Source: Peribolospora baueri (lineage: Eukaryota). Taken from it: a DNA stretch of 64,000 nucleotides. The stretch lies in NCBI GenBank assembly GCA_029717555.1, contig JAMDHS010000031.1, positions 62,001-126,000 of the forward strand, given 5' to 3'. Within the stretch, counting starts at the first letter, position 1. Each line of letters begins with the position of its first letter. A program made the position numbers and the translations under genes. The notes below the pieces were generated by a model. It was not told the origin of the DNA. It saw only the letters and a list, made by a program, of their open reading frames with translations, and did not search any database. Shown piece after piece: positions 1 to 61,663 of this stretch.

Positions 1-268
1 TGGCCTTGGAGCTCGTCCGCTGGCGAGTGGTCCGTGACCAGGAGAAGGGATTATGAGCGCGTCGGACGACGTTCAGATAATGTACACGGTGCACGTTGCG
101 CACTCGGGACGACCAAGTTGCCCAAAGCAAAAAGCTGTGAACATGTGATCACGGATGGGAGGCAGAATAAGAGACAGAGAACGATTCTATCCAAGCTAGT
201 TCCATGTCCTTTTTTTTTTCCTTTCCATGCTCTCATGGTTCCGTCCGTTCGTCCGTTCGAGTCGCCCC

Positions 269-12916: not shown

Positions 12917-15682
12917 TTACGGACCCCCTGCCAGCGTCCTCTCCGCCTCTTCCACCACGGCTGCCCAGGCTTTGTGCACGTGCTCCTCCCTCGTCCAGGG
13001 GCTCCCGACGACGAGGCGCACGCAGAAGACCTCGCCGGGGAGCATGGTCTGCGTGAGGGCGAGGTCGGAGCGCGAGGACAGAGCGGCGTAGAAGGATATG
13101 TTGAGCGCGTTCGCCTCCTCCTTCTCTTCCACGCCGTCACCTTCCTCGCCGCGCGCGCGGGGCGCGCGCGGTCTCAGGCGGAACACCACGAGGCTCCACC
13201 TCGGCTCGGCGCACAGCTCGAAACGCTCGTCGCTCTCGACGAGCTCTCTGAAGACTTGCGCGCAACGCATGCCCAAGCGGAGGTGTGCGCGCAGGCCGCT
13301 GAGTCCGTGGGAACGGAGGACGAACCAGACTTTGATTGAGCGGAAGCGGCGGCCGAGGGTTAGGGACCAGTTCCGGTAGTCCGTCACTTGGCCTGTGGAG
13401 GGGTGAAAAGGGATAAGGGAAGGAGGGGAGCGACGAGAAGAATGGAAAGCGATGTGAGCGGTAACCGGGGAGGCAACGCGGCACAGAAGAGGGGTGGGGG
13501 GGGCGACCAAGATGACATGAGGAAGAAGGGTTCGACTCGACTCACCAGCGCCGCCGCGTTTCGTCTTAAGGTACTCCGGTGTGACCTCGAAAGCATCCTC
13601 AAGCCATGCCCGGTCGCGGATGAAGAGGCACGAAGCGTCAAAGTTGACGAGTCCCCATTTATGGAGCTGTGTGTACGGACGCGAGTCGAGAGCGAGGTGC
13701 GAAAGGACATCGATCAGAGAGGCTTGGTCGTCAACGCGAGCCGACGAGAGGAAGGGCAGGAAGAGCGCGAACGGAGGGAGAACTGACGTTGGTACAGTAG
13801 CTATACGCGCCACTGTTGATGGCATCAAGATAATTGGCTTTGCGCATCTCGGGAAGCGCGAGAGTGACGCCAGCGTAGGCGGCTGCGACACGAGATGTGA
13901 CGAGACGAGAAACGGTCGGGCCGAGTACGGTTCGGTCAGCAAGCCTTTGCGCAAATGAACACAGCAAAGCGGCGCGGGAGCAGACGCTCACCGTCAACGT
14001 GCAGGAACAACTTGGGGTGATCGCGGAGGACCTCGACGATCTCGTCCATGCGATCCACCGCGCCGGACGAGGTCGTACCGACGGTGGCGACTGGGCGACG
14101 ATAAGGGAAACACGATTAGCATGGCACTAGGGAGAGCTTTCTAGCGGACTCACTCAGAAAGAACGGAACCTTCCCCTCCGCCGCGTCCTCCTCAATTGCT
14201 TTCCGGAGCGTCTCCCCGCGCAGGGCAAAGTCGTCTTCCTTGGAGACTGGAAGGGCGCGGAAGGGAAGGCCAAGGATAAGACCCGCTTTGGCGCCGAGCG
14301 AGTGGGTCTGCAGCGCGGAGCGGAGATGCCATAAGGGAGATTGGAAGACCGTGCGAGATGTCGCGCGAGAAGTGGAAGATCAAACGGTGAGAGAGGGCCG
14401 AAAGGGAGCCTAGAAAGCGGCGCTCACTTGAGTGGTACCGTAAATGACCAGCCGACTAGTGATCCTGCTCCTCTGCTCCGCCGTCAATGCCCTAGCCAGG
14501 CTCCGACCCGCTCGTACGGCCGCACTAGGGCTCTCCGTGCCATTCGTCTGCGCCGCCGCTGCCGCCGGTGGCCCGCTAGGATGGGCCTGATCGGGATGCA
14601 CTCGAAGGAGATCGGCGGCAGAAGAGTCTTCTTCTGCAAAAATGAGCCGAATGGCCCTCTCCCTTGCTGCGATGGCAGCCACAAGGGCGACCTCGGAGGC
14701 GCCGCCTAGGATCGCACCTCCACCGACGCCAGTGGTCGATAGGAAGGCAGAGGAGAGGCCGAAGGCCCGCGCCAGTTGGTCCATGACTGCCGATAAGGAG
14801 GGAAGAGAAGGAACACGATAACGTTAACCAACGTCGCGCCTCGACGTACGAAGGAAGTGGAAGACACTAGCTCACCATGCTGTTCCAGCTCGGTCACAGA
14901 GGGCGAGCAAGACCACTGCGGAGCAGAGAGAACGTGATGAGTCCAGCCGAGCACATGCAAGGGTTGTGAGCCCAACGCGAAAGGTGCTCGCTCACGTTGA
15001 AGCCGGGATTGCTGACCGCCGCGGCCCACATGTCGCCGAGGATGCCCTCGAAGCTGGTGTTGGCCGGATAGTAGGCGAAGAAGGAGGGGTGCTGCCAATG
15101 GGTGATGCTAAGCGGAGTGGATGCGAGACAGGTAGTTCAGCCCCACACCACTGTCTCGACGGCACACACAGCATGAGCAAACCTCAGGGTCATGTCTCCT
15201 GGACTCACCCGGGCATGATAACATTTTCAAAGTCATCTTGTATCACCTCCCACGGCTCTGGCTCTTCGGGAAACGTCTCTGAGCGCACGGTCGGGCGAAG
15301 AGGTGAACGAGTGGGACCAATTCAACGAGCGCGCCAAGATGACCCCTTAACCGACCAGCGACCGGCCTACATACCGGGGAGCTGTTTGGTCAGAAAGCCC
15401 GGTTGGACCTGACTGACGACTGGCCGTTCCTGGAGGGCGTAATAATACTCACATATCCTGGAAAAAAAAAGCAGAAGTAGGGATAATTGCCAAAGAGAAA
15501 GACAGAAGCGTGGGTTAGGGCGCCCTGAGCACCGACACGGCCTGCTCACCTGTCCACGGCTGCGTACCCGGCTTTGCGAAAGCTACAGAAGAGCGTCGAT
15601 AAGGTCGGGGTCCGGCTCTTTCGGGCTAGGGGACGAGCCTGACCGGCCACACCGGCAGGCGGACGTACCCTTCGATATCCAT
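12917..15682 (-). CDS. PLP-dependent aromatic-L-amino-acid decarboxylase (group II)
   Basis: MDIEGFRKAGYAAVDRI..., IMPGITHWQHPSFFAYYP, ATVGTTSSGAVD, LHVDAAYAG, NLHKW (PLP lysine), TPEYLK, DYRNWSLTLGRRFRSIKVWFVLR. Confidence 0.95.
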
Positions 15683-16116: not shown

Positions 16117-17938
16117 TCAAAGGGCCCGCGTCGTGTTCGTGCACTCTCCATTCCCGTACCAGCCCATCCGGATGCCGACGTAAGGTCTGCGACAAAAGCA
16201 GGCAAAGGCAAAAGAGACGCGGTGGCCCCGCGCAGCGTGAGCACAAGTATCAGACAGAAATGGCTGCCAGCGCTCCCTCTCTCCACCTCACGGCCAGCAG
16301 GATGTCGCGCAAACTCACCCGTCATGCATGGCCCAACCCAGGTTATCCGCAACCGAGTCTGCACAGTTCTGGTTCTCCTGCCCTGGACAGTACTCTACGG
16401 ACGTCAAGTTCGGAGAGGGGATCCAGAGCTCGCCTGTTGAAGGAGGGTGCGATAGTGTGACGGAAAATTGAGAGATGTAGACGGGTAAGTCGGTGGGGGT
16501 CCGGTCAGCAGGGAAGATGGTGGCGAAGGTCGACGTGAGTGAAGGAGGAAGGAAATACTCACCTGCTGTGTGCCAGTAGCCCGTGTAAATGGGAGGTAGG
16601 TGGGGCACGATGTCTTCAAGGGGGAAGAAGACAACGTCATCACAATCGAGTTTGAAGTCGTCCATGGGCAACTGCACCTGAAAGCTCTCTCACCGTTATA
16701 GTTCGTGAGATGGTGGATGATACCAAGGTAGCCGGTTTTGTATCGAGCGTCCACGAGATCAGCAAAGTCCTTGTTTCCGACGCGGGGCAAGCCGACTGTG
16801 AAGCGAGGGGGAGCGAGGATAGAAGGGGGGGTGATTGTGATCAGAGAGAAATGGTCAGGTGGGACACGAGCCAAAAGCGACGGAGGCGCGGAGAATGAGA
16901 TGTCTCACATAGGATCGTCTTGACATTAACTTTCCTCCCCACTCGCTCCTCGGTGAGATGGGCGTTAAGAGCGAGGCCGTCCATCAAAGCGATCGCCGCG
17001 CCCAGGCTATGGCCCGTGACCAACACCTCGTCCACCCCGTCACCCTTCGTCACCGCCGCGGTGATGGTGTCTGTGATATTGGCGATCGTAGTGTTCCACG
17101 TTCGCTGGAAGCCTTGGTGCACGGAAGGTTCAATGATGTGGCCGTCTGCGTCTGACGTCTGTGACAGCAGATGCCGAGCAGCGACGTTGTCAGGAAGTGG
17201 ACTCGACGCCGTCCTCGACGAGGGCCGAACGGAAGCCGAGCTGTTGTACGTCACGTTCAAGGCGGACGCGAGCAGAGGGTCGAGTTTGACGGGGAAAAGG
17301 TCAAGGTCGTCGAGGATGGACAGGATCGAGTTGGTGTTGGTACCTGGGAGAGGGGGAACATGAGCCGAATCAGACAGCGAGTATGGAAGCGAGGCTCGTC
17401 GAGGCGATGGTCCGACGCGACGCCGGTAGGACTCGCCTTGATGAGCGACGACAACGCGACGAGCGCGGGATTGCAGGGCGATGTAGTAGTAAGGCGTAGC
17501 ATCTCCATCTCCGCCCGCCTCCAGCACTTGGACTGGACCGAGCGCTTCACACGCCGCTGCTTGGGAACGAAAGGAAAAGGGACGACTCAATATCGATGGC
17601 TGGGCGCAACGCCGGACGACTTGTCCTGCATACTCACTTCCACAGCTCCACCGGCCTCTTTCCACTACGTCCGCGCAATAACTCGCGCTCGCAAAGTTGG
17701 CCGCCGTGCGAAGGTCGTCCAGCTGGCTCGTGCCGTTGTACGGCACGGCGGGGCGTCTGTTGATGAGTGTCGGGTCGGTGGGCTGGGGGTCGGAGATGGT
17801 CGTGGTCGTGGTGGTGGCCGTGGAGGTCGCGGCGGGCAATGGCAAAGCGTCGGGGGTGGGTACAAAAGGGATCTGCCTGCCAGCCGCGCAGAGGGCGAGA
17901 GAGATGAGGGCGAAAGCGCCAGAGAAAGGCGAACGCAT
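16117..17938 (-). CDS. Secreted class-3 lipase with intact catalytic triad
   Basis: Signal peptide MRSPFSGAFALISLAL; VVVAHQGTN, VHQGF, VTGHSLGAAIA, GLPRVGN, DIVPHLPP, MHDGPY. Last exon ends ...TRAL* at 16117. Confidence 0.9.
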
Positions 17939-18399
17939 CTTGGAGAAACAAAGACAAAATACGGGTACGGTAAGCTGGAGTCCGCTTGGTAACCGGTGCC
18001 TCAACATAAAATAGGGATGACGACGAGGTCAGGATGAGATTCGCCAAGGCAGGAGGGTGATAGCAACGTCCCGAAAGGGGCGACCGTGACATTCGCCTTC
18101 TCCACCCGTCAGCTAGGCCCCTTTCCCAGTCTTGGTTAGCGCCAGGACGTGCTCGAGCGGCTAAGGTTCGATCAGGCTGACTGCGGCTCGCCCACGGGCC
18201 ACGGGTGAGATCGATCTTCAAATTATATGGCTGCTAGAGTAAGGTATGTATCTATGTACCATACGGTCTAAAAGACAAGAAAGAGGCAGGCAGTAAACCT
18301 TGAAGCTCGTCGCTGGTAGCTAGCACGCTACATGGATGGATGGCTAGATGGATAGACCGGACGACCGACGGCTTCCCACGAGATCCGGTCGTTCAAGGG

Positions 18400-21842: not shown

Positions 21843-23343
21843 GACTATGAAATGGGAAAGAAGAGAAACAAAAGGGGAGCGATCAACGCTCGAAGAAAGC
21901 GAGGGTATGGCCGGACGAGCAGGCCGGCTAGCCTGTGGGGTGAGAAAGGGGGGGTGGGATAAGAGAGAAAGTGGTGGTAGATCACGACGTCCACGACAAC
22001 GCAAAAGACGGCTGGAGAAGGAAAGTCGGATACGAAGGGAATAGAATTAAATTGGTTAGAGAGGAGACGGGAGACGGGAGACGATGACGACCACGGGTCG
22101 TCCATGGCACTGAAGCCGGCTTACACAACGTAGACGGTGAGCGAACGGACGATGGGCGAGCAGGGGCAGGAATGAGTCTCGCTGTCGGGTTGGAAGGGAG
22201 GCGAGCTCGTTCGAGCCGGCAGCTAGGGCGGCTGTTAGTGGATGGGGGATGTTGTCTGTCGGCTTTAGCTTAATCTTCACTTTCCTCAGCATCTGGGCCT
22301 CGCTAACACGATCTACTCGGCCAAGAGACGTCAGCCATGAACAATTTATTTTGGAAGGTGGCCGTGATGAAGTGTGCGGCGTCTGCGACAGAATGGAGGG
22401 GGGACCTAGGAAGGGGCGCCATTGGCGTCGGTGAGAAGGATAGAGCACTGGCGTCCACTGCACACGCTACCCGAAGAAGATTTATAAATGTGAGCATGCC
22501 AGTGGGAGATGAGACGGAAGATGAACAGATAGGCCAAGGGGAACGGCAGCAGGACGCGCAAGGAGGAGCGGCGAGGGAAGCAGAAAGCAAGCCACAAGAT
22601 CGGCCAGACATCCAACGCCAATGACGAGGTATCTGAACCAGCCGTGGCGGTTGGAAGACGGAAGGAAGGAAGACAGGGAGCGTCACCGGCATCTGAGCAC
22701 GGCAATCGAGCACTTGACGAGCGAGTTGGGATGTTCAACGACGACGGTGGCGCGGACGTGTGTCAGACGATGGACGATGGATGGATGTGAGATGTGCGAG
22801 AGGGCAGGGAAAAGTAGCCAGCCACGCGCGGCGATCCTGCTGCGGCCTGCCTGTCAATCGGCCGCAGCAGGATCGCCGCCACGTGGCCGCCTCCACCGGA
22901 GAGAGGCGGCGTGAAGCGGTCCGGCGTACTCCGAGACTGGAATCTTTGCCAATGGCTCCGGACGAAGGAGGCAAAAGTTCGACAGGGCGGAAAAGAGGAC
23001 GAAGACAAGACAAGACCAAGGCAAAAAGTATCAAGTCGCACGACGACACGGACAGGACGGATCGACAAGCTACGGGTTGTAACTTGCATCAACTAGACCC
23101 ACGGATAGCAGCGAGCAAGCAAGCACGGCAAGGCTCGCAGAAGCCAGATACCAGACGTCCTTACGAAATATCGGACCGACCTCGGCATTCACAGATTCGC
23201 CTTCTCGCCAACATCCCTCACTTTCCTTCTCTTTCTCTTCCCCGTTCGTGTCTCGCTCCGAACTTTCTTCTTCCCATTTCTCATCCAAGTCCTCGACGAG
23301 CGCCTACCACGGTCGGCTCATTTCCTAGACCGCCGCCGGCATC

Positions 23344-25523
23344 ATGTCCTTCCTCCTCCCTTCCGCCTTTCGCCCCCTCCACTGCGACGCACCACCTTCA
23401 CACCGGGAAGAGAAGCGGGAACACCATGGACGTCCGGAGAGCACCGTAGACTCCCGGATTAAGGGCGAGGGGCGGTTTGTCGTCAACGCCAAGGTGCGCG
23501 CCCCCGGAGAGACACGAGGAGGTGAACTTGGATCGGTCCCCGCACGCACGCACTGCTCACCCTTCTCCATCTTCGCCTTCTCGCACGCCTACCATACCTC
23601 CACCTCCACCGTCCCCGCACTCCTCTCTACCCACAGGTCTACGCCCGACTGCAACCCGACCCCCAATTCGCCGATCACATCGCCCGCTTCCGACAAGAGC
23701 TCGCCCAAGCGCCCCCGGGCTTGATCGCCTACAAATCCACACCCGTTACCTCGTCCAGCGTCGACCCCTCCTCGCAGGCTACTGACGGCCACCTCGTCTG
23801 CCACGAGCTGTATGTCAGCTCCGACCTCGAGCCCCACTCGCAACAGACCGCCTCCTCTACTCCGCCTTCGTCGTCATCAGCATCTCCCTCGCCGAAACCT
23901 GGCGAGCCGGCGGCGGCGGCGGTGGGGGCGGCGGACAAGAAGGGGGTGCAGGGTGCCGTGGCGGGCAAGGCGAGCGGCTTCCTCGATGACCTCTTCCATT
24001 CGGCTTACAACTTCATCCTCGGAGGCATCGCCGGCGCCGTTGGCGCTACGCTCGTCTACCCTATCGACCTCGTCAAGACAAGGATGCAGAACCAGCGGTC
24101 CGTAGGCGAGCGGCATTGAGGAAAGCCAGAGATAATCCTTCTACTCGACGCTCACTCGCTCTCCTCCTTCTTCCAGCTCCTCTCTCGTCGGCGAGCCGCT
24201 GCTCTACAAAAACTCGGCCGATTGCGTGCGCAAGGTGTTCGCCAACGAGGGCTTCCTTGGCTTCTACCGCGGCCTCGGGCCCCAGCTGATCGGTGTTGCG
24301 CCGGAAAAGGCGATCAAGCTGACCGTCAACGATCTTGTCAGGGGCAAGGCTAAGGACTCAGAGACGGGCAAAATTACCTTGTTCTGGGAGATCGTCGCCG
24401 GTGGCACGGCTGGTGGATGTCAAGTGGTTAGTTGAGAGCGCCCGTAGACGGTTCAAGAGGGCGTTCTTGCTTTACTCCAAGGAAATTGGCCCGGCTAAGA
24501 ACCCCGCATCTCTTCCCACCTCCGCAGGTCTTCACGAACCCCCTCGAGATCGTCAAAATCCGTCTCCAGATCGCCGGCGAAGTGGCGAAAGCGGAAGGGG
24601 GTTCCGCGGTCCCTCGCGGCGCCTTGCACATCGTCCGCCAGCTCGGCTTGCTCGGTCTCTACAGAGGCGCGTCGGCGTGCCTGCTGCGCGACATCCCCTT
24701 CTCGGCCATCTATTTCCCCGCGTACGCCCACCTCAAGAAAGACGTTTTCCACGAGGGCAAGAACGGCAAGAAGCTCGGGTTCGGAGAGATGCTCGCCAGC
24801 GCGTCCATCTCCGGCATGCCCGCCGCTTTCCTCACCACTCCAGCCGACGTTATCAAGACGAGGCTACAAGTCGAGGCGAGGAAGGGCCAGAGCACCTATA
24901 AGGGCATCGGCGACGCTTTTGCCAAGATTCGTGAGTTCATCCGTCCGGGGCGTCCTACGCCGTTCGCCGAAGCGAGCTCCGACCGCGCTCACTCCCCGCA
25001 CAACTCCCCTTCTCTCCCTCGTCCTTTCGCCGTCCACAGTCAGGGAAGAAGGTCCGGCTGCGCTGTTCAAGGGCAGCGTGGCCCGCGTCCTCCGCAGCAG
25101 CCCGCAGGTGAGTCCGTCCCGTCCACCACACAGCGCAGGCGCAGCGATATCTCGCGACCCTGACGCCCGCTTTCTTTCCCCCTCGCTTCCCGCCCTTTCC
25201 CAGTTCGGAGCAACGCTCGTGGCCTACGAATACCTCCAAAAGTTCCTGCCCTACCCTTTCGCGAAAGTGTCCCAGGCCGTCGAGCACGCCATCGCTCCGG
25301 AAGACCCAGCGAGGACGCGGGCGAGGAATGCTCTCAAGTTGCTCTTGGTAAGTTGGGTTCCGCGGGCGAGACTTGAGGCTCCTCTCCCTCCGTCGTCTTG
25401 ACGCGTCGACGCACGCTGACCGCACGCGCTCGGATCGGGACCATTTTTCGCTTCGAAACGAAACAGGATATGCATGAAGACTTTGGAAGGCCGACGGTGC
25501 CGGCGGGCTTCGCTTCCAAGTGA
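23344..25523 (+). CDS. AGC1: Mitochondrial carrier, aspartate/glutamate (AGC1/citrin) type, with an atypical N-terminal domain
   Basis: Three PxDxxKxR-type signatures ([36 protein letters not shown]), [32 protein letters not shown], and the tail [17 protein letters not shown]. Confidence 0.88.
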
Positions 25524-44711: not shown

Positions 44712-46319
44712 ATGTTCGTCTCTGCCCTGCTTGCAGCTTCTCTTCCCCTTCTTTCTTTTTCCTCCGTCTCCGCCCTTGTCGTCGACCCACGCTTCGATAC
44801 CGTCTCGAGCTGGGAGCGCTCGCAGCCGCCTGCCGGTGTGGACAAGGGCTCTGGGAGCAATGGGGCGGCGTCATTGCCGCAGAACATGGTCATCTTTGGC
44901 GATAGTGAGTAATATAGGAGCAAAGGGAGCGGAGAGGGAAGCAAGTCTTACCGTCCCTTTTAACGCCTCATCCGACCCCATTCTCATCCGTCTTCACAAG
45001 GCTACACCGACAATTGTAACTTTTGGCGAGAGTTTTCCGTCCCGCCTAACGTGTCAGATGCCTACCCTTTCCCTTCCTGTCCGCCCCCTCCCACTGGAAG
45101 GGCTGACAACGGCATGTCTTGGGCGGAGTACATCGCCAACACGACGCGCATGAACGTCTTTAATTTTGCCTACTCCGGGGCCACGTGCAACAACACTCTC
45201 TTCTCCCGGGCTTACAAGCAAGCTAATGGCACCACCGCTCCCGACCCGGTGAGCGCAATGGCCATTGGAAGCAAGGCGGTACGAAACTGCATGTCGCCTC
45301 CTCGCTCATCTCTTTTCCGACCGCTTTCCTCGCTCATCTCTACAGGACGTCACGATGCAAATCGATCGTCTCCAAGCCAACGAGTCGCTTGCTCACCTCT
45401 TCGACAGCCAAACTGTGGCAGCTATTTTCATCGGTACGAACGACCTCAATTTTTTCTTCTCCGAGTTCCTCAGTTCTCCCAATGCCACCAACGTGGATCG
45501 CCTACCCCCCGGCGCCACCATTCTCGACGAGGCAAGCTGTGTAGTGGCGCAGGTGAACAGGCTCCACGAATTGGGCATCCGAAAGTTTTTGGTGCTGCAA
45601 AACATCCCGCTACAGTTGACCAGCATGTACAGTGCCAACACGACGTCCGCTGGGGCCCCGCAGACGCAGAATGGTGAGCTTGTCCCCTCCTGCTGGCCTC
45701 TTGGGCTCGTCAAACTCAAGACACTTCTTCCTTCTATTTTGATCACCTCACCTTTCCAGGTCCCTTCATAGCGGAAACTATGGCCAACTACGTCAATACC
45801 AACAATAAGCTCCAGATGTTCCAGCTGGGCGCTCTTCAGCAGAGCCTCAAAGATGGCACCACCGTCGACATCTTCCCTACATATGATCTCTTGTAAGTCA
45901 ATCCCTATCCGTTCGGCCCTCTTTCTTTCAAACACGTTTTCATCCCACCCTGTTCTCCATCGATCCGCCCTGACACCTTTTCTTTCTTCCAGCTGGGACT
46001 TCTATCACAACCCGTCCAAATACGACTTCAAGAACGTCACTTCCTACTGCGACCAACCCTCTGGCCCTTGCTCCAACCCAGAAGACTACCTCTTCTGGAA
46101 CAACCTACAGTGAGAATGACGGTGAACGAGGAGATAAACGAACCGACTGCGTTATGTTCTTGTTCGACCCAGACGGACGAAGCGGCTCACCTAGACTACT
46201 TGTTTCTTGCGCTTCTTCTTCTCGCCAGCCCTGGAGAGCATGCGGACCGCATCCTCGCCTCCAAGGTCGTTTCCTTCCTCCAAGGCCAGACCGACGTCAC
46301 GAGCGGCGGATCGATGTGA
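44712..46319 (+). CDS. Secreted GDSL/SGNH esterase (CE16-like)
   Basis: Signal peptide; IFGDS|YTDN, GRADNGMSWAEY, NFAYSGAT, IFIGTND, YLFWNNL|HP. Confidence 0.85.
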
Positions 46320-46740: not shown

Positions 46741-49700
46741 TCACCGAGCCATCATCTCCACCTCTTCCTGCCTGTCTCTCTCGCTGGCGCTCGCCCGCCC
46801 CGCTGCGGCTAGCGACGCGTTCTCAAGCTCTCGGAGGATGCGCACGCACTCGTCGCACCTTTCTCTCGTCGAGCGCATGTACATCAGCAAGCTCGGGATC
46901 GCCTCTGGTGAAAGCGCCAATCGGCGTGTCAAGCTGGCCGATGCGGCCGCGGCTGCAGACTCTTTCGCTGAAGGAGTCGGGGAAAGGCCAGCACTTCCGG
47001 TCGCAGACACCGAACGGCGCATGCCCTCAGGGGTGCGATTGCCGGCGGGGCCGTTCACCGGCGGCCGCCCGTCGATCCCTACGCGACGCAACATAGCTGG
47101 GTTGACCTCGGACGATGAGCGAAGGAGGGCGAGGGAGGGTCGTGCGCTGTCGATCGAAACACCTCTGTTCGCTTCTACCGCCAGCGTTTCCTGCGCTCGT
47201 TGATCTCTTCTGGGCGTGATCGTCAGAGTGGGGCTCGCCACTCGTTCCGCGTCGGCCGGCGTGCTACTACGTCCTCCGCCACCACCACCGCCACTGCTCG
47301 AGCCGAAAGAGAACAGCCGTCGTCTCGGTCCATCTGCGCTGACGGCCGCAGCGATCCAGCTTGTTCGTCGGCGGCGGCAAGGAGATGGATTGGCCGGACT
47401 GTCCCATTCCGACCGGCTCCCGTCCAAGTTCTCCTCGGCAGGCAAGATAACGTCTTCCGGCTCGCTAGCAGCTGCGCCAACAATGCTATTATGACGCGAG
47501 CCACCTTTCCGGGATCGTGAACGAGTTGGAGGCATGGCCGCGTTCATCTTGCTCTTGGACGATTTTCTCAAGATTGACGACGAGGAGAACGGCGCGCCAA
47601 GGCTGCCCAAAATGCCCGATCCTGACGTGGAGCTCGTGCGCTGAAGAGTTCGGGTAGACGGGGAATCTAGGGCCGCGGATGAGGTGAGCGTGGCGGTCGT
47701 GGAGCCAACGCCGACACGCTGGGATGTCCTCGGCGTGAGGGTACGTTGAGCGTCGTCCATAGACGAACGAGGCGGCACAAAGTCATCGCCAACACCTCCT
47801 TCGAAAGCCAACTTGGTTGGGCTCTTGACGCTGTCAGCGTCCGATAGCGCAGAGCCCGGCTGAGCGTTTGCGTCGACTGTCCCCAGCTTCAGCGACTTCA
47901 GCAGGTCTTTGAGACCGGCCAAACCGGCTCTACTCGCGCGTCGCAGCTTGCCCTTGGGCGAGCCCGCCATAGAACTTGCGGTCAGAGCTATCGAGTCAAC
48001 CGACATCGTGACGGGAAGAGCGGCAGAATTGACATCGCCGCCGTTGCTTGGGGGTGAAGAGTAAGGAGAGGCGCGTGTCTGGGGGGTCTTTCGTCCGACA
48101 GCCGGCGGTGGAGTAGTTTGAGAGGAAAGCTGTAACGCAGAGGTCGAAGCGGCGGGCGTACTGATCCGGTGGTAAGATAGACTTACAGCCTGGTTGTCAA
48201 AGGTGACGTTGGATCCGTAATGAGGGGGTGTCGTCGTTGTTCCCTGGCTCATCGAAAGAGCCGGAGATGCCTTGCCATCAGCTGGGAGAGGTCCAGAAAT
48301 AATGCCTCGTAGCATCTCAAGCTGCCGATCAGAAAGACTTTTGCGGCCCGTGCTCGCTCGCCAAGCCGGCACGGCCTTCTCGACAGGCATGCCCTGGCTA
48401 TCGATCGAGAGTCTGCCGGCCGCGATGGACGAGTTGGACGGACTAACGTTATGACCCTTGGCGTCTGGGCTCGGCGCCGCGCTCGCAGTGGGAGTGACCA
48501 TGCTGACTGAGCGCTCTCGTTCCCTCGTCGACTCAGGCGAACCTAGAGCACCACCAGAGTCGTTACCTCCTTGATGTTGTCCTGCGCCGAGGTCGACCAG
48601 TAGGTCCGCCATCTCCCACCACGGCCCATACTCCACATCGAGGCGGTCAAGGAGATGAGCACGATGCGAAGAAAGCGCGAAACCGTTGGCGAGGGAGAAG
48701 GTTGACTCGGTGCGAAGGGCGACCGACAGGGTGCTGTATGTGCGTAGCAGCGCTTTGAGATCTGTCCAGAAGGGTAGCAAAATTTTAAAACCTTTTAGTA
48801 CACAATTTCTCGGGGTCACCCAAGCGCCGCAGGGCCGCGGTTGAACTTACCTTCGATGCCCCTAGCAAACTCCCTGACGTACATGACGTCCTGCCGAATC
48901 CCGCTTTGCGCCTGACTGATCCTCGCCGGGATCTTCAAATCGCTCAAGCTGTTCCTCCTCCCGAGCCCAAGCCCGGAGCCGCTGCCGTTGCTGCCCGTTG
49001 AAGATTTTCCGCCGGCAGACACCCTAGAAGCGGCCTGGGAGTGTGAGTACGAAGGCTCGACAGATATGCTTTGGGAAGCCTGCCGGCGACCCCTTGCCCG
49101 CCCTTCTGAGTTCAAGTCCGAGCTCCGTTGGCTTCCGTGTCCTAGGCCACGCTCAGATTGCTCGGCTTCTCCCTCTTCCACCATGCTGGTCTTCCATGGT
49201 GGAGCGCTGAGCGGCGGCAAGGGCAAATCGGACTCAGTCGGCGGACTCGGATTGGGACTAGAGCGTGGCCGAAGGTGAGGCCGGGCTTTCGGCGTCGCGC
49301 CGATGACTGAGCTCGAGCCCACGGAGCTGGCGGCGCTGGTGTCGACGAAGACGAGCTGGGATGACCGCTTAGCTCTTCGTTTGGAAGCGTGAGCCGTCGC
49401 CGCGTCTTCGCGGAGCCCGGAAGGTCGGGCAAGCTCGAGAGGAGGTTCGAGCCCAGCGACCGCAGGGAAAGCCCGAACTGTCGCATCGTGCTCTAGCGGT
49501 TCGTCTAACTCCGTGTCCGCCCCGGTGGCGGCATTAGAATACCCGATTTCCGAACCGGTCCTCTTTGCACCCAGGACAGGCGTTTTCTTCCGGCGTCTCT
49601 CCTCTCCTCGCAATGAGATTCGCGGAGGTGTGGTTGGCAAGGGCGAGGACGTGGACGGAGTCGGGGTAACAGAGCGGCATTGCTCCGCTCCGGAGGAAGC

Positions 49701-52700
49701 CATACTGCGCCTTTTCCATCCGCCATCGGCTGTGGGAAATGGATGGTGAATGACGCCGCCGAAACCGTCCGTCGTCGACATCGGCTGCGCGCCTGCATCG
49801 GACACCTCAGCGTCCTCCAACGCCTGCCTTTGCTCCTTCTCCTTCATCTTTCGCTGTACGAAACCACGATGTCCGAGAAGAGACGACAAGCCTTGAGAGA
49901 TGGACGTCGACGTGCGGTGGTGAGATCTCTTCGAAGGGGAGGGAGGAATATTCGCCACTTGCGGAGCCTGAGACTGAGCATCAGAGCGGGGAGATCGGCC
50001 ACGACCACGACGATCCGGGGAGAAATCAGAGGGCGCCAGGAGCTTTAGTTTTCCTCGTTGAGGTGACTTGGGAGGCCTGACTGGAGGCAGGCTACTCAGG
50101 GCACCGGAGGAGCCCTCATATCCGCATCCCGCCACATCTGCCCCCTGCTCCTCCGCCTGCCCGCGTCCATATCCTTCCACACGCTCGCGCCCCTCGTCGG
50201 CTTGACAGTCACGCGCAAACTCCACGTCGCGGCTAGAACCGCGGCTTGCCGCACTTCCGGCGTCGGCGCCTGGCAAGGCCCGCCCCATCCGATTCGCTCC
50301 GCTCTTGATGGTGAACCTTTTTGACTTGACCTTTTTCTTCTTGCTCGAGGCGGGCTCAGCAGGCTCAAATCCTGGGGCGATGGTAGAGGCTGTGTTGGGT
50401 CTGGATTCTGGGACGCCAGAGGCGCGACGAGCCGTCCTGGACGCGGACCGACGCGGTGGACTCTGAGCGCGACTAGCGGCCTCCGAGGAGTTGACGTACG
50501 CAGCAGAAGAAGCAGATGGCACGCCGGTAGCGGCGGCGGCAGCGACCAGCGAGTTGCGTCGATCGCGACCGTGATGACCAAACGCGACGGCCGCCGAACT
50601 CCTCAGGGCTGCCCAACCTCGCTCGAGCGGAGAGCTGCTGAGGCTGTTGGGCGTGCTCGCTGGCGCCAGGTGGTCCTGATTCGTCGCCAAGTCTTCCTTG
50701 CTCCCTGCCGCTTCCTTTCCCTCGATGGCCATGGCAACTTCGACCGGCGCGGCGCGCGCACCGCGCGCCCAAAGCATCCCCTCTATCGACGTCCTCCGCC
50801 CACCATCCTCCTCCCCGCTCGCCTCTGCGCTCGAAAAGCTGTACTTGGGCTGCGTCTCTGCGAAGGAAGAGGGGGTGGGCACGATATCGCGGGAGGCACT
50901 TCGACTGGCGTTGTTGGAGCGCCGGGAGGTGGACGAGACGGCTGTCGTAGTAGTGGAAGCGGAAAGAGGTATGAGCCGAGGGACGGGAACGCGAGTTTTG
51001 GAGGGCGAACAAGGCGGAGGGGAAGAAGATAGCATCCCGCTACTGGTCCGGCCACTGCTGCTGTTCGTCCCGATGGCGCGCTGTCGCACCGTCCGATCCG
51101 GATCCTCTTCCGCCCGGACCGAACCAGATCCAGGGACATGTCCCGACGCGGAGCGGTGCGCCAAAGTGGACGAGGAGCGGCGCCGCGAGGAAGAGGCATC
51201 CCCGCTGGCGGAGAGCGCGTCCTCGGCGGAAACTCGACCGAAGCTCTGAGCAGCGAGGGTGGAGAGCGCCCGGAGCGGGCTCGAGCTTGCCAAACCGGCA
51301 GTAGCAGCCGCCGCAGCGCTGGCGACGGATACCGACACTGAGGAGGGCGCAGCCGAGCGGTGGCGATCGAGGTCCTTGAGGTCGATTTGGACAGACAGCC
51401 GCTTCAGCGATTCCGACCGGGACACGGACGCTGTACCCATACCAACTCCCACCTGAGAGGTCGTGGATGCGGCGGCGGTGGATGTGGAGGAGACGGCGAG
51501 CAGGGGTACCCCTTGCGCGGCGACTTCCTCGTCCGGCGGCTCAGGCCCAGACTTCTTTTTCAGCTTCTTGCGCTTGCTGTTCTTCCTTGGCCTCGCCAAC
51601 GGCTGCCCGCCCACGTATTCCTGCTCATAGCCGTACGAGCGCTCCAAATCGAAATCGCCCTCGTGCTCGCCCCGCGAGCCCGGTCGAACGTCGGAGGGGC
51701 GGAATGGAGAGAGATACTCCATGCCATCGTCACCGCTGGCGAGGAAAGAAGAGACAGAGGCGCGGGAGATGGAGCCTCTCGTTGAGCTGCCTTCGCCGGG
51801 CAGGGGGGCGAAGGTGGACAGAGTGGGCGACGGAAACACTTGCGGCGTGCTCCACTCTCTTCCTCCGCCTAGCCCTCGTTCCAGAGCTCCCAGCTCATGG
51901 CGCAGTCGATACTCACTGGAGGACGGAGAAAAGGTCCGCGAATCTGGACCCGCGCCCGCCGTCGAAGCGGCGACACCAGCATGCGAAGAAATCCTCAATG
52001 TCTCTTCCTCCCCTCTACCCTCGGCGCTGCTATCGTAACTCGCGCTTCTCCGATGACGGCCGTGAACAAGAGGTTTCCGACTCGCGCCGGCGTTGACAGT
52101 GGGGTCATCATCAACGAACCCCATCTCCTTATCCCAATCCAGGTCCAGATCCATCGTAGCCTCCTCGTTCCTGTCACGTCCATCATCGCCTACCGCTTTT
52201 CCAGAGGCAACTGAGCTCACTCTCGGAGGCGAAGGCGGCGAGACTGGGGGGGCGGCCGACGAAGCGCCTCGGCTTTTAGCTTCGCTCTTGCGCTTGGAGG
52301 AGATCGGACGGGCAGAGTCGTGACGGCGTGAAGAGCGACGGTGAGCGCCAGCTACGCCGTCCACGCCTTCCGCTTCCGTCTCCGTCTCCGTCAAGTCCTC
52401 ATCCCCATCCGCCCCCACGTCGTCCCGGGCCCAGTCGGGATGGACGCCGAGATCCGAACCAAGCGTCCACTCGCGCGTGTCCTCCACGTCCTCGTACTCC
52501 GCATCGTCGAGCGACGAGGGAAACGAGTCGGTCAAGCCTGGGGTGGGAGAGCGCGAAGTGGTGAAGGACGACATGGTACCGGAGCGTCGCTGTCGGGTGC
52601 GGGGAAGGATAGCCATGGTCGAAGGTGGGGACAGCACGGAGCCTGGCTGAGCGGTGTAGAAGCTTCCCTGGCTGGACTGGTGGGCGAGGGAGCCGGTGGA

Positions 52701-53925
52701 GAGGGTAGAAGGCGGGGCAGCGATATCGGAGGGAGGAGCGTAGGCGAGCGAGCTGCTGCGCGGACTGTCGCCAGCGCTCGCCCTGAGACGGAGCGTGCCT
52801 CCCCTTCCTCCACCCATGACGCTCACGCCGCCGTGAGAAGCGAGCCAGCGGAGCGTAGCCCTCGAGTCAGCGCGCTCATGTGGGCCACCGGCGGATGAAC
52901 GACCAGACGTGAGAGTGGAGGTCGACTGGCAATGTTCCGTCGAAGGCCGCGCATCCAAGTTGCTCCCGCCGACGGGAGGCAAGGAGGACCAGTCCTCCGG
53001 GTCCTCCTCTGAGCTATCGCCCGACCCATATGCAGATCTTCGTCGGAAGCTAGGCGAAGGCGACCCTGAGCCCGCGCCTGAGGACGGAGAGCCAGCGGGA
53101 GCGGTGTGGTAGGATGATGATTGGTGCCTGCGAGATCTCCTCCGCGTCGAGTTGGCCGGAGAGCGAGAGCGGGCGACGGTATTGGACGAATGCAGGTCGT
53201 CTGTGGAGGAAACCTGAAAGAGGAAATCGTCGTCCCATGATTCCGACACCGTGGAGGCTTCGGATGGGAGGCGGGAGCAAGATAACGGAAAAGGGAGCGA
53301 TCAGTGATATGAAGAAAGGTGGTTTTGAAGCGCGCGACGCAAAAGGAAAAGGACGCTCTTACTCACACAAACGACCTGGCTTGCTCATGCCGTTGACCTC
53401 TTCCAATCCTTCCCTAGGCGTATCCAGCTCCGGTTCGTACCCCAACCCGCCAACGAGCAGCCCTAGCCCTCCCATTCGCCCTGCCACCTTTGTCAACGCG
53501 ACCTGGTCCGTACCCTCGAGCGCGCTAGTGCGCTCGCTGAGGGCGCTGACGTAGTCGCTCGCGGCAGGACTGTCAACAGCCGTTGCCGCCCTCGCTGACC
53601 GAGCGCGGGCTGAAGAAGGGGAGGGAGAGGTGCCTGAGAGATGAGCGATGTGTGGTTGGAGGTCCTTGGGCGTGCCGAAGGCGCTGACGAGCGTGCTGGG
53701 CGTGGAAACAGTAAAGTCGCCGGAGTCGTCATACGAGGCTGAGGAGGTGAAGGCGGTGGAGGAGCTTGTGGTGGCCATGGAGTTCTGAGTGGATGAGGAC
53801 ACAGTGCGCTGGTAACTTGATCCCTCCGCCTGGTCTGCAGAGTTGCCGGGCTTTGAGGGCATACGAGGCGAGGAGGAGCCGCCGAAGGCCAAGAAGGGGA
53901 AGCGGGGAGAGCGGTTGGAGGGCAT
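46741..53925 (-). CDS. Large (~2,330 aa) Ser/Ala/Arg-rich, mostly disordered protein of unknown function
   Basis: Exons 53925-53367, 53257-48851 and 48761-46741 join in frame (6,987 nt). Ordered-looking blocks: SLSDLKIPARISQAQSGIRQD..VREFA, YGPWWEMADLLVDLG, LALSPEAIPSLL. Confidence 0.8.
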
Positions 53926-59648: not shown

Positions 59649-60585
59649 ACGTACGGTACGGTCGCGCAAGGGCGCGGCGAGAAGAAGGCCCAAGTTGTGG
59701 AGGCGTCAGTGGTGTCGCGTAGAGGGAAGCAAGCGGTGGGTGACGACGGCGAGGACAAGTTGAACGCCAGGCACGCTGGTGGGCACTTGTCTGCAGCGGC
59801 TCTTTCATTTTCTACGATACGGTTTTCGTCTTGTATTGCCTTCTCTTAATTTCTTCCATTGCAGAGAATACCGTCCTGCAAATACCGTTATTCCGCACTG
59901 CACGCTCGTCGGTGAGAGTCCGGACTTGCGACAGGACTACATGAAAACATACATGGGGAAAGAAACGCACGGACAGTCGCTCGCGGATCCCGCTATTATG
60001 GACTGGACGTTGGAAACGCGATCTAGGAGGCACGGAATGGCATAAATGAGCCAAGCTTCACCCCATTGAGGGAAATCTGGCAAACAAGTGGCCTGCATCG
60101 GTCGACCGAATGTGGTGTTGCGCTGTCTCCAGGGAACGCTGACGACGGTCGGCAGTGGCGTAGGCCTTCTCCAACAGGCGGTGGCTACAGATTGCGCGCT
60201 GACCGCACGGGGGGGTGACTTGCAGAACGCCCGCTGCCGGGTGGAGCGAGGTACAACGTTGAATCCGTCCTCAGCTTTGCGATAGCCACATGAGACAATC
60301 TCTCGCCCCAATAGCGTCGCTCACTCCGCCTCACGAAACAGTCTCCCCCTCTCTAATTTTTCTCTGTGCATACTTGGCATCCCCGTCGTTCCGTTTGCGA
60401 TAGCTTCGAGAGCTCTTCGCCGAACGGCAGCGAGTTGGTAAGAGTGATCACGTGATGTCATTTCGAGGTCGCGTCCCGATCGTTTCGCCGACGATCAGGT
60501 GCACCTGCACCTGGCTCTTGTCGAACAATTTCTGAACTCGACCGACTCCACTCCACCCGGAGCGTCCGCCTGTCTGCCGCTCGCG

Positions 60586-61663
60586 ATGGACCAGCTTCCG
60601 CCTCCACCGCGTGTTGTCGTGGGCAAAGCCAGTCCCGCCGGCGCCGGCATGGGATTCAACTGTGCCGGGTGCGGCAAGTTTATCGCCGGCAGGACGGTGA
60701 ACGCGATGGGTATCAAATGGCATCCCGATTGCTTCAAGTGAGTGGACAAGCCGTGGAAATCGCTTTGCGTCCTTGGCCAGCGGGGCCGCACGTCAGTCAT
60801 GTCGAGCGAGGCTTACGCCGTGTTTGTTCGTGCTTGGTCTCTCTCGCCGTCGGTGCCGTCTCGGTTGGACAGATGCGATCATTGCGGAGAGCACCTCGAG
60901 CACGTCGCTTTCTACGAGCACGACGGAAAGGCGTACTGTCATTTTGACTATCACGAGGTGAGAGGGCCGGTTTGTTTCGCGACGGCGGGGTCATCCTCTG
61001 ACGCCTTCGGCTTCGTCGTCTCAGCTCTTCTCTCTACGCTGCTTCCATTGCAAGACGCCAATCGTCGACGAGCGGTTCATCGAGATCGACGATCCCGAGC
61101 TCGGCAAGCGCACCTACCACGATCTCCACTTCTTCTGCGCCAACTGCGGAGATCCCTTCCTCGACCCTTCCTCCCCCACCGCCACGCACCTTCCTCCGCA
61201 CCTCCGACAAGAGTCCGGCGGCGGCGGCGGCGGCGGCGGAGACGAACGAGGAGGGGCACCGGAGGGGAAGAGCAAGGAATTTGTCGTCGTTCGTGGACAC
61301 CCTTACTGTGAAGCCTGTCACGTCCGACTCCACAAGCCCAAGTGCTGGGGATGCAAAAAGCCAGTGGCGGAGGAGGTTGTCAAGGCGCTCAACAAGAGCT
61401 GGCACCCGGAGTGCTTCGTCTGCGAGGTGAGTGTGCGGCCTGCCTGCCGTATCGGTTGGGAAGGACGCCTGGCCGGTCGAGAGAGAGAGATATCAGCGTC
61501 CTGTCCTGACCGTTGCCGATTCTCGCCTTTCGGATGCGCCTGGGCACGCCTCGACATACAATAGAGCTGCAAGCGACCATTCGAGACCGAGTCGTTTTTC
61601 GTACGCCAGAACAAACCGTACTGTCAACATTGTTTCGAGATGTTGCTTCGCAACGAGGTGTGA
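60586..61663 (+). CDS. Three-LIM-domain (paxillin/Pxl1-like) protein
   Basis: CAGCGK...WHPDCFKCDHC...YCHFDY; CFHC...HDLHFFCANC...YCEACH; CWGC...WHPECFVCESC...YCQHC. The start is uncertain. Confidence 0.88.

Follow-up and report, generated by a model that had tools for sequence, protein, structure and literature searches.

A small predicted alpha+beta module in place of the EF-hand domain in the AGC1-type carrier of Peribolospora baueri and other Ustilaginomycotina

We analyzed a 64,000-nucleotide stretch of the Peribolospora baueri genome (GCA_029717555.1, contig JAMDHS010000031.1, positions 62,001 to 126,000 of the forward strand), which we call the window and number from its first letter. 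The window holds an AGC1-type mitochondrial carrier gene, and this study concerns the N-terminal region of its product, where a small module is found instead of the EF-hand N-terminal domain (N-domain) known from other aspartate/glutamate carriers (AGCs). The gene lies at 23344-25523 on the plus strand and has seven exons that join into one open frame of 510 amino acids (aa). Every intron begins with GT and ends with AG, and the introns are 79-143 nt long. Translation starts from the ATG at 23344, directly downstream of a CT-rich tract and with an in-frame stop codon 15 nt upstream. We corrected the end of exon 2 from 24101 to 24097, the sole donor that gives the open 510-aa frame. In an alignment of 26 relatives with the two P. 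baueri exons, the end of exon 1 and the start of exon 2 fall in adjacent columns of an ungapped conserved block. As the relatives read the 23493/23637 junction continuously, homology supports the splice. An earlier note on this DNA, made without database searches, had proposed the start codon, intron 1 and the N-terminal peptide, and all three proved correct by translation, by the GT and AG intron ends and by the continuity of the relatives. The parts of the gene and its product are listed in Table 1.

Table 1. Exons, selected introns and protein parts of the P. baueri AGC1 gene (positions in the window)
Feature	Residues	Position	Strand	Remarks
Exon 1		23344-23493	+	50 aa, from the start codon through the conserved N-terminal peptide and a short charged spacer to the first half of beta1
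Intron 1		23494-23636	+	143 nt, GT..AG; interrupts strand beta1 of the module
Exon 2		23637-24097	+	begins VYARLQPDP...; donor GTCCGT
Exon 3		24177-24426	+	
Exon 4		24528-24930	+	
Exon 5		25040-25107	+	
Exon 6		25204-25347	+	
Intron 6		25348-25466	+	splits the C-terminal amphipathic helix
Exon 7		25467-25523	+	ends in stop codon TGA
Conserved N-terminal peptide	1-16	23344-23391	+	ends His-Cys-Asp; His-Cys-Glu in most relatives (alignment)
Variable spacer	17-40			
Beta-alpha-beta-beta module (predicted)	41-118	23464-23840	+	intron 1 inside; conserved block
Ala/Ser/Pro/Gly-rich linker	119-167	23841-23987	+	assigned by composition; length and sequence vary among relatives
Carrier domain	168-460	23988-25251	+	exons 2-6; gene model, Pfam Mito_carr
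C-terminal amphipathic helix	477-499	25300-25487	+	motif conservation, predicted helix

By its sequence, the gene is an AGC1 orthologue. The Pfam family Mito_carr matched exon 2 (E 7.9e-10), exon 3 (E 4.5e-12) and exon 4 (E 4.1e-27, in two stretches), and one relative, P0016, contains three Mito_carr stretches (E 1.9e-73). The carrier domain and C-terminal tail are 71-77% identical to EF-hand AGC1s of Agaricomycotina over ~345 residues, and the identity of the spliced product to short AGC1 relatives is 59-69% along almost the entire protein. A search of the PDB sequences with the full-length alignment returned 14 matches, all of them carriers, and none of these fell on the N-terminal profile positions. 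The Mito_carr repeats, the identity to named AGC1s and a position inside the fungal AGC1 tree agree with the earlier assignment of an AGC1-type carrier, and from orthology over the carrier domain an exchange of aspartate and glutamate is predicted.

The region in front of the carrier is different. About 167 residues lie upstream of the first carrier helix, close to the ~165 counted earlier, and the earlier reading that they hold no EF-hand loops is borne out: at E≤10, Pfam reported no EF-hand family, and exon 1 together with the first ~120 residues of exon 2 matched no family of any kind. When we compared the N-terminal profile with a profile of 58 EF-hand N-domains using hhalign, the probability was 0.5%. 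A tblastn search with EF-hand N-domains found nothing near the AGC1 gene in the window. The absence of both a profile link and a genomic match argues that the domain was replaced rather than decayed in place. There is also no second, EF-hand AGC1 within these 64 kb, where the best tblastn match had an E value of 0.004 (45165-45407). Weak EF-hand matches recurred at 60.6-61.6 kb (60651-60767 and 61476-61634), and these are spurious because they fall in Cys/His-rich open reading frames (ORFs). As read from their translations, several ORFs at 60448-61564 on the plus strand have repeated Cys/His spacings that resemble LIM-type zinc fingers.

The module is shared by a whole lineage. With exon 2 as the query, 1565 of 8000 scored candidate proteins reached E≤0.001, and we considered the best 120. 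Of these, 32 contain the module; they are 302-614 aa long, cover 82-100% of the query (100% in 29 cases) at 38-49% identity, and have Mito_carr as their only Pfam family. The 14 named proteins among the 32 all come from genera of Ustilaginomycotina (Ustilago, Sporisorium, Pseudozyma, Kalmanozyma, Melanopsichium, Testicularia, Thecaphora, Tilletia, Ceraceosorus, Meira and Parajaminaea), and a cluster look-up added Jaminaea and Acaromyces as further genera with a short, module-bearing AGC1. The matches of the remaining 88 proteins span only 14-48% of the query, at the end with the carrier; EF-hand Pfam families occur in most of these proteins, at lengths of ~650-730 aa. The N-terminal peptide (residues 1-16) is common to the short AGC1s that we aligned, of which the named ones are from Ustilaginomycotina. 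Near-invariant positions of the module include R, F, H, F, PG, Y, L, H, D, L and H, and the conservation pattern of the N-terminal sequence is beyond chance. A search of relatives for the same fusion, as the earlier note had advised, thus returned a lineage-wide one.

All copies of the module that we examined are fused to AGC1 carriers. An exhaustive profile search of 1.84 billion protein representatives gave 13 proteins with E≤1e-3. The ten that we examined are AGC1 carriers, or fragments of them, with the module fused, and the other three (P0130-P0132; 769-4945 aa, 4-8 short stretches, E 7e-6 to 3e-4) may be low-complexity matches. No stand-alone protein of the antibiotic biosynthesis monooxygenase (ABM) family, the family to which the earlier note had likened the module, reached significance in this search. 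A word-indexed search for stand-alone homologues of 37-153 aa produced 13 matches at E≤10, six of which carry Mito_carr; the other seven are short unnamed pieces covering 21-34% of the query at 62-75% identity. The module has no Pfam family of its own. The earlier note knew of no description of this architecture, and we likewise found no published account of an AGC1 with such an N-terminal module in the literature covered, which did not extend to subscription journals. The protein P0133 has a much diverged copy of the module (profile E 7.6e-4) fused to the same carrier, with only two of the conserved histidines kept and the cysteine lost, and could be useful for defining the minimal conserved core.

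We then placed the short forms in a maximum likelihood tree of the carrier domain with 40 rows; Peniophora and Calcarisporiella were left out of the 41 chosen relatives. The 11 short forms constitute one clade (support 95/91). This clade is nested in one of Basidiomycota (100/99), in which the nine further rows all represent EF-hand forms. P. baueri AGC1 is sister to the remaining ten short forms (98/94). The nesting of the short forms among EF-hand AGC1s fits a single replacement, and we are nearly certain of the event itself: at the base of Ustilaginomycotina, an EF-hand N-domain of ~300 residues was replaced once, and the carrier and its C-terminal helix were retained. The product of this replacement, of which we are equally sure, consists of the conserved peptide of ~16 residues, a variable spacer, a module of ~70-80 residues and a low-complexity linker. 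The domain swap proposed earlier is therefore a lineage-wide replacement and no mis-annotation, on the combined evidence of homologues, alignment, gene model and tree. The exon-2 search contained no protein identical to P. baueri AGC1, and the best exon-2 identity was 49%. Together with the early branching, this suggests that P. baueri is probably an early-branching member of the subphylum from a sparsely sampled lineage.

The fold of the module was predicted with AlphaFold2 for P0016 at full length, from a 28-row alignment, and for the module alone, from a 14-row alignment. In the full-length model, the module has strands at residues 47-55, 82-89 and 98-107 and a helix at 61-76, with predicted local distance difference test (pLDDT) values of 87-92, and the module-only model shows the same beta-alpha-beta-beta order (mean pLDDT 77.7). 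The N-terminal peptide has pLDDT values below 50 in the full-length model. This model is also weak for the carrier, most of which has a pLDDT below 50, and its predicted template modelling score (pTM) is 0.32. The confident models of the module mean that it is neither disordered nor built of helix-loop-helix pairs. The earlier note had named disorder and a degenerate EF-hand as outcomes that would speak against its reading, and neither was found (pLDDT ~90, hhalign 0.5% against EF-hand domains). As modelled, the module is the first two thirds of a ferredoxin-like fold, beta1-alpha1-beta2-beta3. The conserved block stops at a histidine after beta3, the residue at which alpha2 starts in ABM proteins, and the Ser/Pro/Ala-rich linker begins where alpha2 would be expected.

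Sequence comparisons pointed to one family as a possible source. Four of the 28 members of the P0016 alignment had a sub-threshold match to Pfam ABM (best E 0.017), whereas each of the other four non-carrier Pfam families in the same table occurred in one member only. For P0016 itself, residues 47-88 aligned with positions 2-43 of the ABM profile. When the module profile was searched against 177,635 PDB sequences, the sole match at E≤10 was the ABM protein 3bm7 (E 0.86, module 13-82 on chain 18-85). Feature matches in the ESM Atlas included ABM clusters at 0.86, a value that serves as a lead only. We also compared the module by hhalign with ABM, ACT, Dabb and S6 profiles built from domains in ten bacterial genomes. 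The probability was 49.4% with 16 ABM domains (P 1.7e-4), 62.8% with 27 ABM domains (P 7.1e-5) and 47.8% when a 27-row module alignment including P. baueri was used (P 1.9e-4). The 62.8% alignment spans 52 columns, and 71 columns at a loose threshold, where it runs through beta3 to the conserved histidine. The values were far lower for ACT (25 rows, 1.0-1.2%, P 0.045-0.057), S6 (five rows, 0.2%, P 0.25-0.31) and Dabb (three rows, 0.1%, P 0.44-0.55), for the reversed module against ABM (0.2-0.4%, P 0.17-0.31) and for the EF-hand N-domain against ABM (0.2%, P 0.31). ABM against Dabb, the positive control, gave 93.2% (P 2.8e-7).

On this evidence we lean slightly towards an ABM-type ferredoxin-like domain as the ancestor of the module, of which the first two thirds would remain, alpha2 and beta4 being missing. 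Several observations weigh against such an origin. No curated ABM threshold was reached (15.2 bits for P0016, cut-off 23.1), the P. baueri exon-2 part had no usable match in the ESM Atlas, and the hhalign probability fell to 6.5% in global mode (P 0.0016). The module did not match Dabb, although ABM and Dabb share one clan. The module profile is shallow (effective number of sequences, Neff, ~2), and the hhalign P-values are those of single comparisons, of which four families with two query alignments were run. Foldseek against the PDB gave no match at E≤0.001, and its best matches were dodecins (E 0.059, TM score 0.36-0.44); 3bm7, annotated as a putative antibiotic biosynthesis monooxygenase, ranked fifth with E 0.18 and 27% identity. 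In addition, the P. baueri exons themselves had no Pfam ABM match at E≤10, and structure searches cannot separate ABM from ACT, S6, MscS-type or dodecin-like plaits. The module is not an ABM family member by any curated criterion, nor is it a whole ABM domain. What stands of the ABM-like fold suggested earlier is a specific sub-threshold ABM signal (Pfam in 4 of 28, 3bm7, hhalign 48-63%); a whole ABM domain does not.

The module could also be a small alpha+beta domain specific to this lineage, arisen de novo or from an unrecognisable source. In that case, the faint resemblance to ABM would stem from convergence on a beta-alpha-beta pattern that includes a Pro-Gly turn. We think this rather unlikely, as three sequence methods (Pfam, the PDB profile search and hhalign) agree on both family and register, and as the reversed, ACT, S6 and EF-hand controls all stayed at or below 1.2%. 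A further scenario, in which an originally complete ABM domain received the carrier as an insertion, was rejected, since the C-terminal tail gave 0.3% against the ABM profile in hhalign.

The retained C-terminal helix suggests what an ABM-derived or other module might do. Short and EF-hand fungal AGC1s alike retain the motif R..ARNALK[IL]LLD.H.DFG, and the corresponding helix of P0016 (residues 459-477) has pLDDT values of 74-86 in the full-length model. In human citrin, according to PMC4250520, the C-terminal amphipathic helix occupies a groove of the EF-hand N-domain, and EF-hands 4-8 are the dimer interface. The short forms have lost this groove and still conserve the helix, which therefore needs a partner. 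When the trimmed full-length model was used in structure searches, many rows spanned model residues 43 to ~480 and placed 76-90 residues on single compact alpha+beta domains, for example 78 residues on 2g0i_A and 77 on the ACT domain of phenylalanine hydroxylase. The module alone aligned only 57-66 residues to such domains. The extra aligned residues, and the end of the range near 480, suggest that, in the model, the C-terminal helix is packed against the sheet at the place of alpha2. The helix thus appears to sit where alpha2 would lie; this reading comes from the ranges aligned in a single low-confidence model (pTM 0.32, carrier pLDDT below 50), which counts against the docking. The linker helix of P0016 is not conserved in P. 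baueri, which has a Ser/Pro/Ala-rich linker, while the C-terminal helix is conserved; this makes the latter the more plausible partner.

Both termini of mitochondrial carriers face the intermembrane space. The module would be located there, without a calcium-binding loop, and may have taken over from the AGC N-domain its structural task, which does not depend on calcium. It would dock the conserved C-terminal helix, which would fill the missing alpha2 place, and the two chain ends together would make one small alpha/beta cap over the carrier. We regard such a structural cap as a tentative proposal that falls somewhat short of an even chance. The module may further pair two carriers through its free sheet face, by analogy with ABM-type dimers and with the EF-hand 4-8 interface of citrin; this dimerisation is speculative and, in our view, improbable on present evidence. 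The architecture, the ABM origin, the cap and the dimerisation taken jointly make up our best explanation, to which we give an even chance. That the module and the C-terminal helix, at the two ends of the chain, constitute one split ferredoxin-like domain across the intermembrane-space face, which also pairs two carriers, is a doubtful proposition. If it holds, the subphylum rebuilt the structural job of the 300-residue EF-hand domain (docking of the C-terminal helix, dimerisation and import competence) with ~80 unrelated residues, possibly derived from ABM. Nature would then supply separate evidence that what is essential about the AGC N-domain is its architectural role rather than the sensing of calcium.

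Instead of forming a cap, the module might be a sensor of a small molecule, of a metal or haem, or of redox state through its conserved His and Cys, and tune exchange in place of calcium, for which some ABM proteins and ACT domains that bind ligands set a precedent. The alpha2/beta4 half helps to build ABM pockets, and the truncated fold lacks this half; moreover, hhalign gave only 1.0-1.2% against ACT, and Tilletia, Meira and P0133 have another residue in place of the cysteine of the ICH motif. We consider a sensor quite improbable. It is more improbable still that the N-terminal region lies outside the mature protein, with the true start near the carrier or with the region serving solely as a cleaved import signal. 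Several database entries of relatives do begin inside the module (e.g. P0007, P0036 and P0126-P0129). However, these starts fall within a strand or a domain, as is usual for truncated gene calls. At the protein level the module is conserved throughout the subphylum, and the models fold it confidently; the CT-rich tract and in-frame stop lie just upstream of the ATG at 23344. A collapsed remnant of the ancestral EF-hand domain would share its position and the retained helix that binds it, and it can be dismissed as a degenerate EF-hand on the 0.5% in hhalign, the lack of an EF-hand Pfam match at E≤10 and a predicted fold of three strands and one helix in place of helix-loop-helix pairs.

Other features of the window were noted along the way. 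A perfect inverted repeat with 20-bp arms at 22828-22847 and 22860-22879, separated by a 12-nt spacer, is found ~465 bp upstream of the ATG of AGC1. Downstream of AGC1, the adjacent gene lies on the minus strand, and its exon at 27185-28063 matches the ammonium transporter family (Pfam Ammonium_transp, E 1e-44). Also on the minus strand, exons at 12917-13987 and 16841-18028 match pyridoxal-dependent decarboxylase (E 2.3e-28) and class 3 lipase (E 4.3e-9), and two long open frames (48816-53300, 1494 aa, and 46741-48846, 701 aa) have no Pfam match above threshold, with a weak Etd1 match (E 4e-4) below the cut-off.

The purpose of the AGC N-domain is disputed, and a whole subphylum without the EF-hand domain is a natural experiment on this question. 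Tavoulari et al. 2024 (PMC11539162) report that calcium does not regulate transport by citrin, that mutations in the N-domain chiefly impair localisation to mitochondria and dimerisation, and that the carrier domain alone is partly active; they also ask why these carriers are dimers. The earlier note had described the swap as replacing Ca2+ sensing. The EF-hand domain is indeed absent from the short forms, but with citrin transport not calcium-regulated according to the same authors, this wording may overstate what was lost, and the structural role is the more relevant comparison. The job that remains for the ~80-residue module is a good candidate for the indispensable function of the N-domain, and the module is small enough for structural and biophysical work.

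The ABM family (PF03992; 3bm7, which is CC_2132, SnoaB 3kg0 and 2ril) differs in that the P. baueri module stays below the thresholds, lacks alpha2 and beta4, is fused to a membrane carrier and was not found alone in the profile and word-indexed searches. Dodecins have a beta-alpha-beta-beta fold of ~68 residues. They were the top Foldseek matches (E 0.059-0.4, TM score 0.26-0.44, root mean square deviation 6.5-7.8 Angstrom) but gave no sequence signal, and they were absent from the top 50 of both VIA-align lists for the module. Yeast Agc1p presumably has a long N-terminal extension, and no budding-yeast protein was among the listed matches of the module in the exon-2 homologue search or the search of 1.84 billion representatives. 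Like P. baueri AGC1, S. cerevisiae Agc1p is a fungal AGC without EF-hand calcium sites, as it lacks EF-hand motifs according to a review (PMC8539049); AGCs without calcium sites are thus already known. According to that review, SLC25A41 has no EF-hand domain and is a paralogue of a carrier regulated by calcium. This is a plain loss, whereas the short AGC1s gained and conserved a different folded module. The short proteins of smut fungi are already in public databases under the name AGC1. The EF-hand AGCs (aralar and citrin, SLC25A12/13, and the ~690-aa fungal AGC1) share with P. baueri AGC1 the carrier domain, the C-terminal helix motif and the three-part layout, but they carry an eight-EF-hand N-domain, which P. 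baueri lacks by Pfam, hhalign (0.5%) and tblastn and in whose place it has the ~80-residue module without detectable relation to it.

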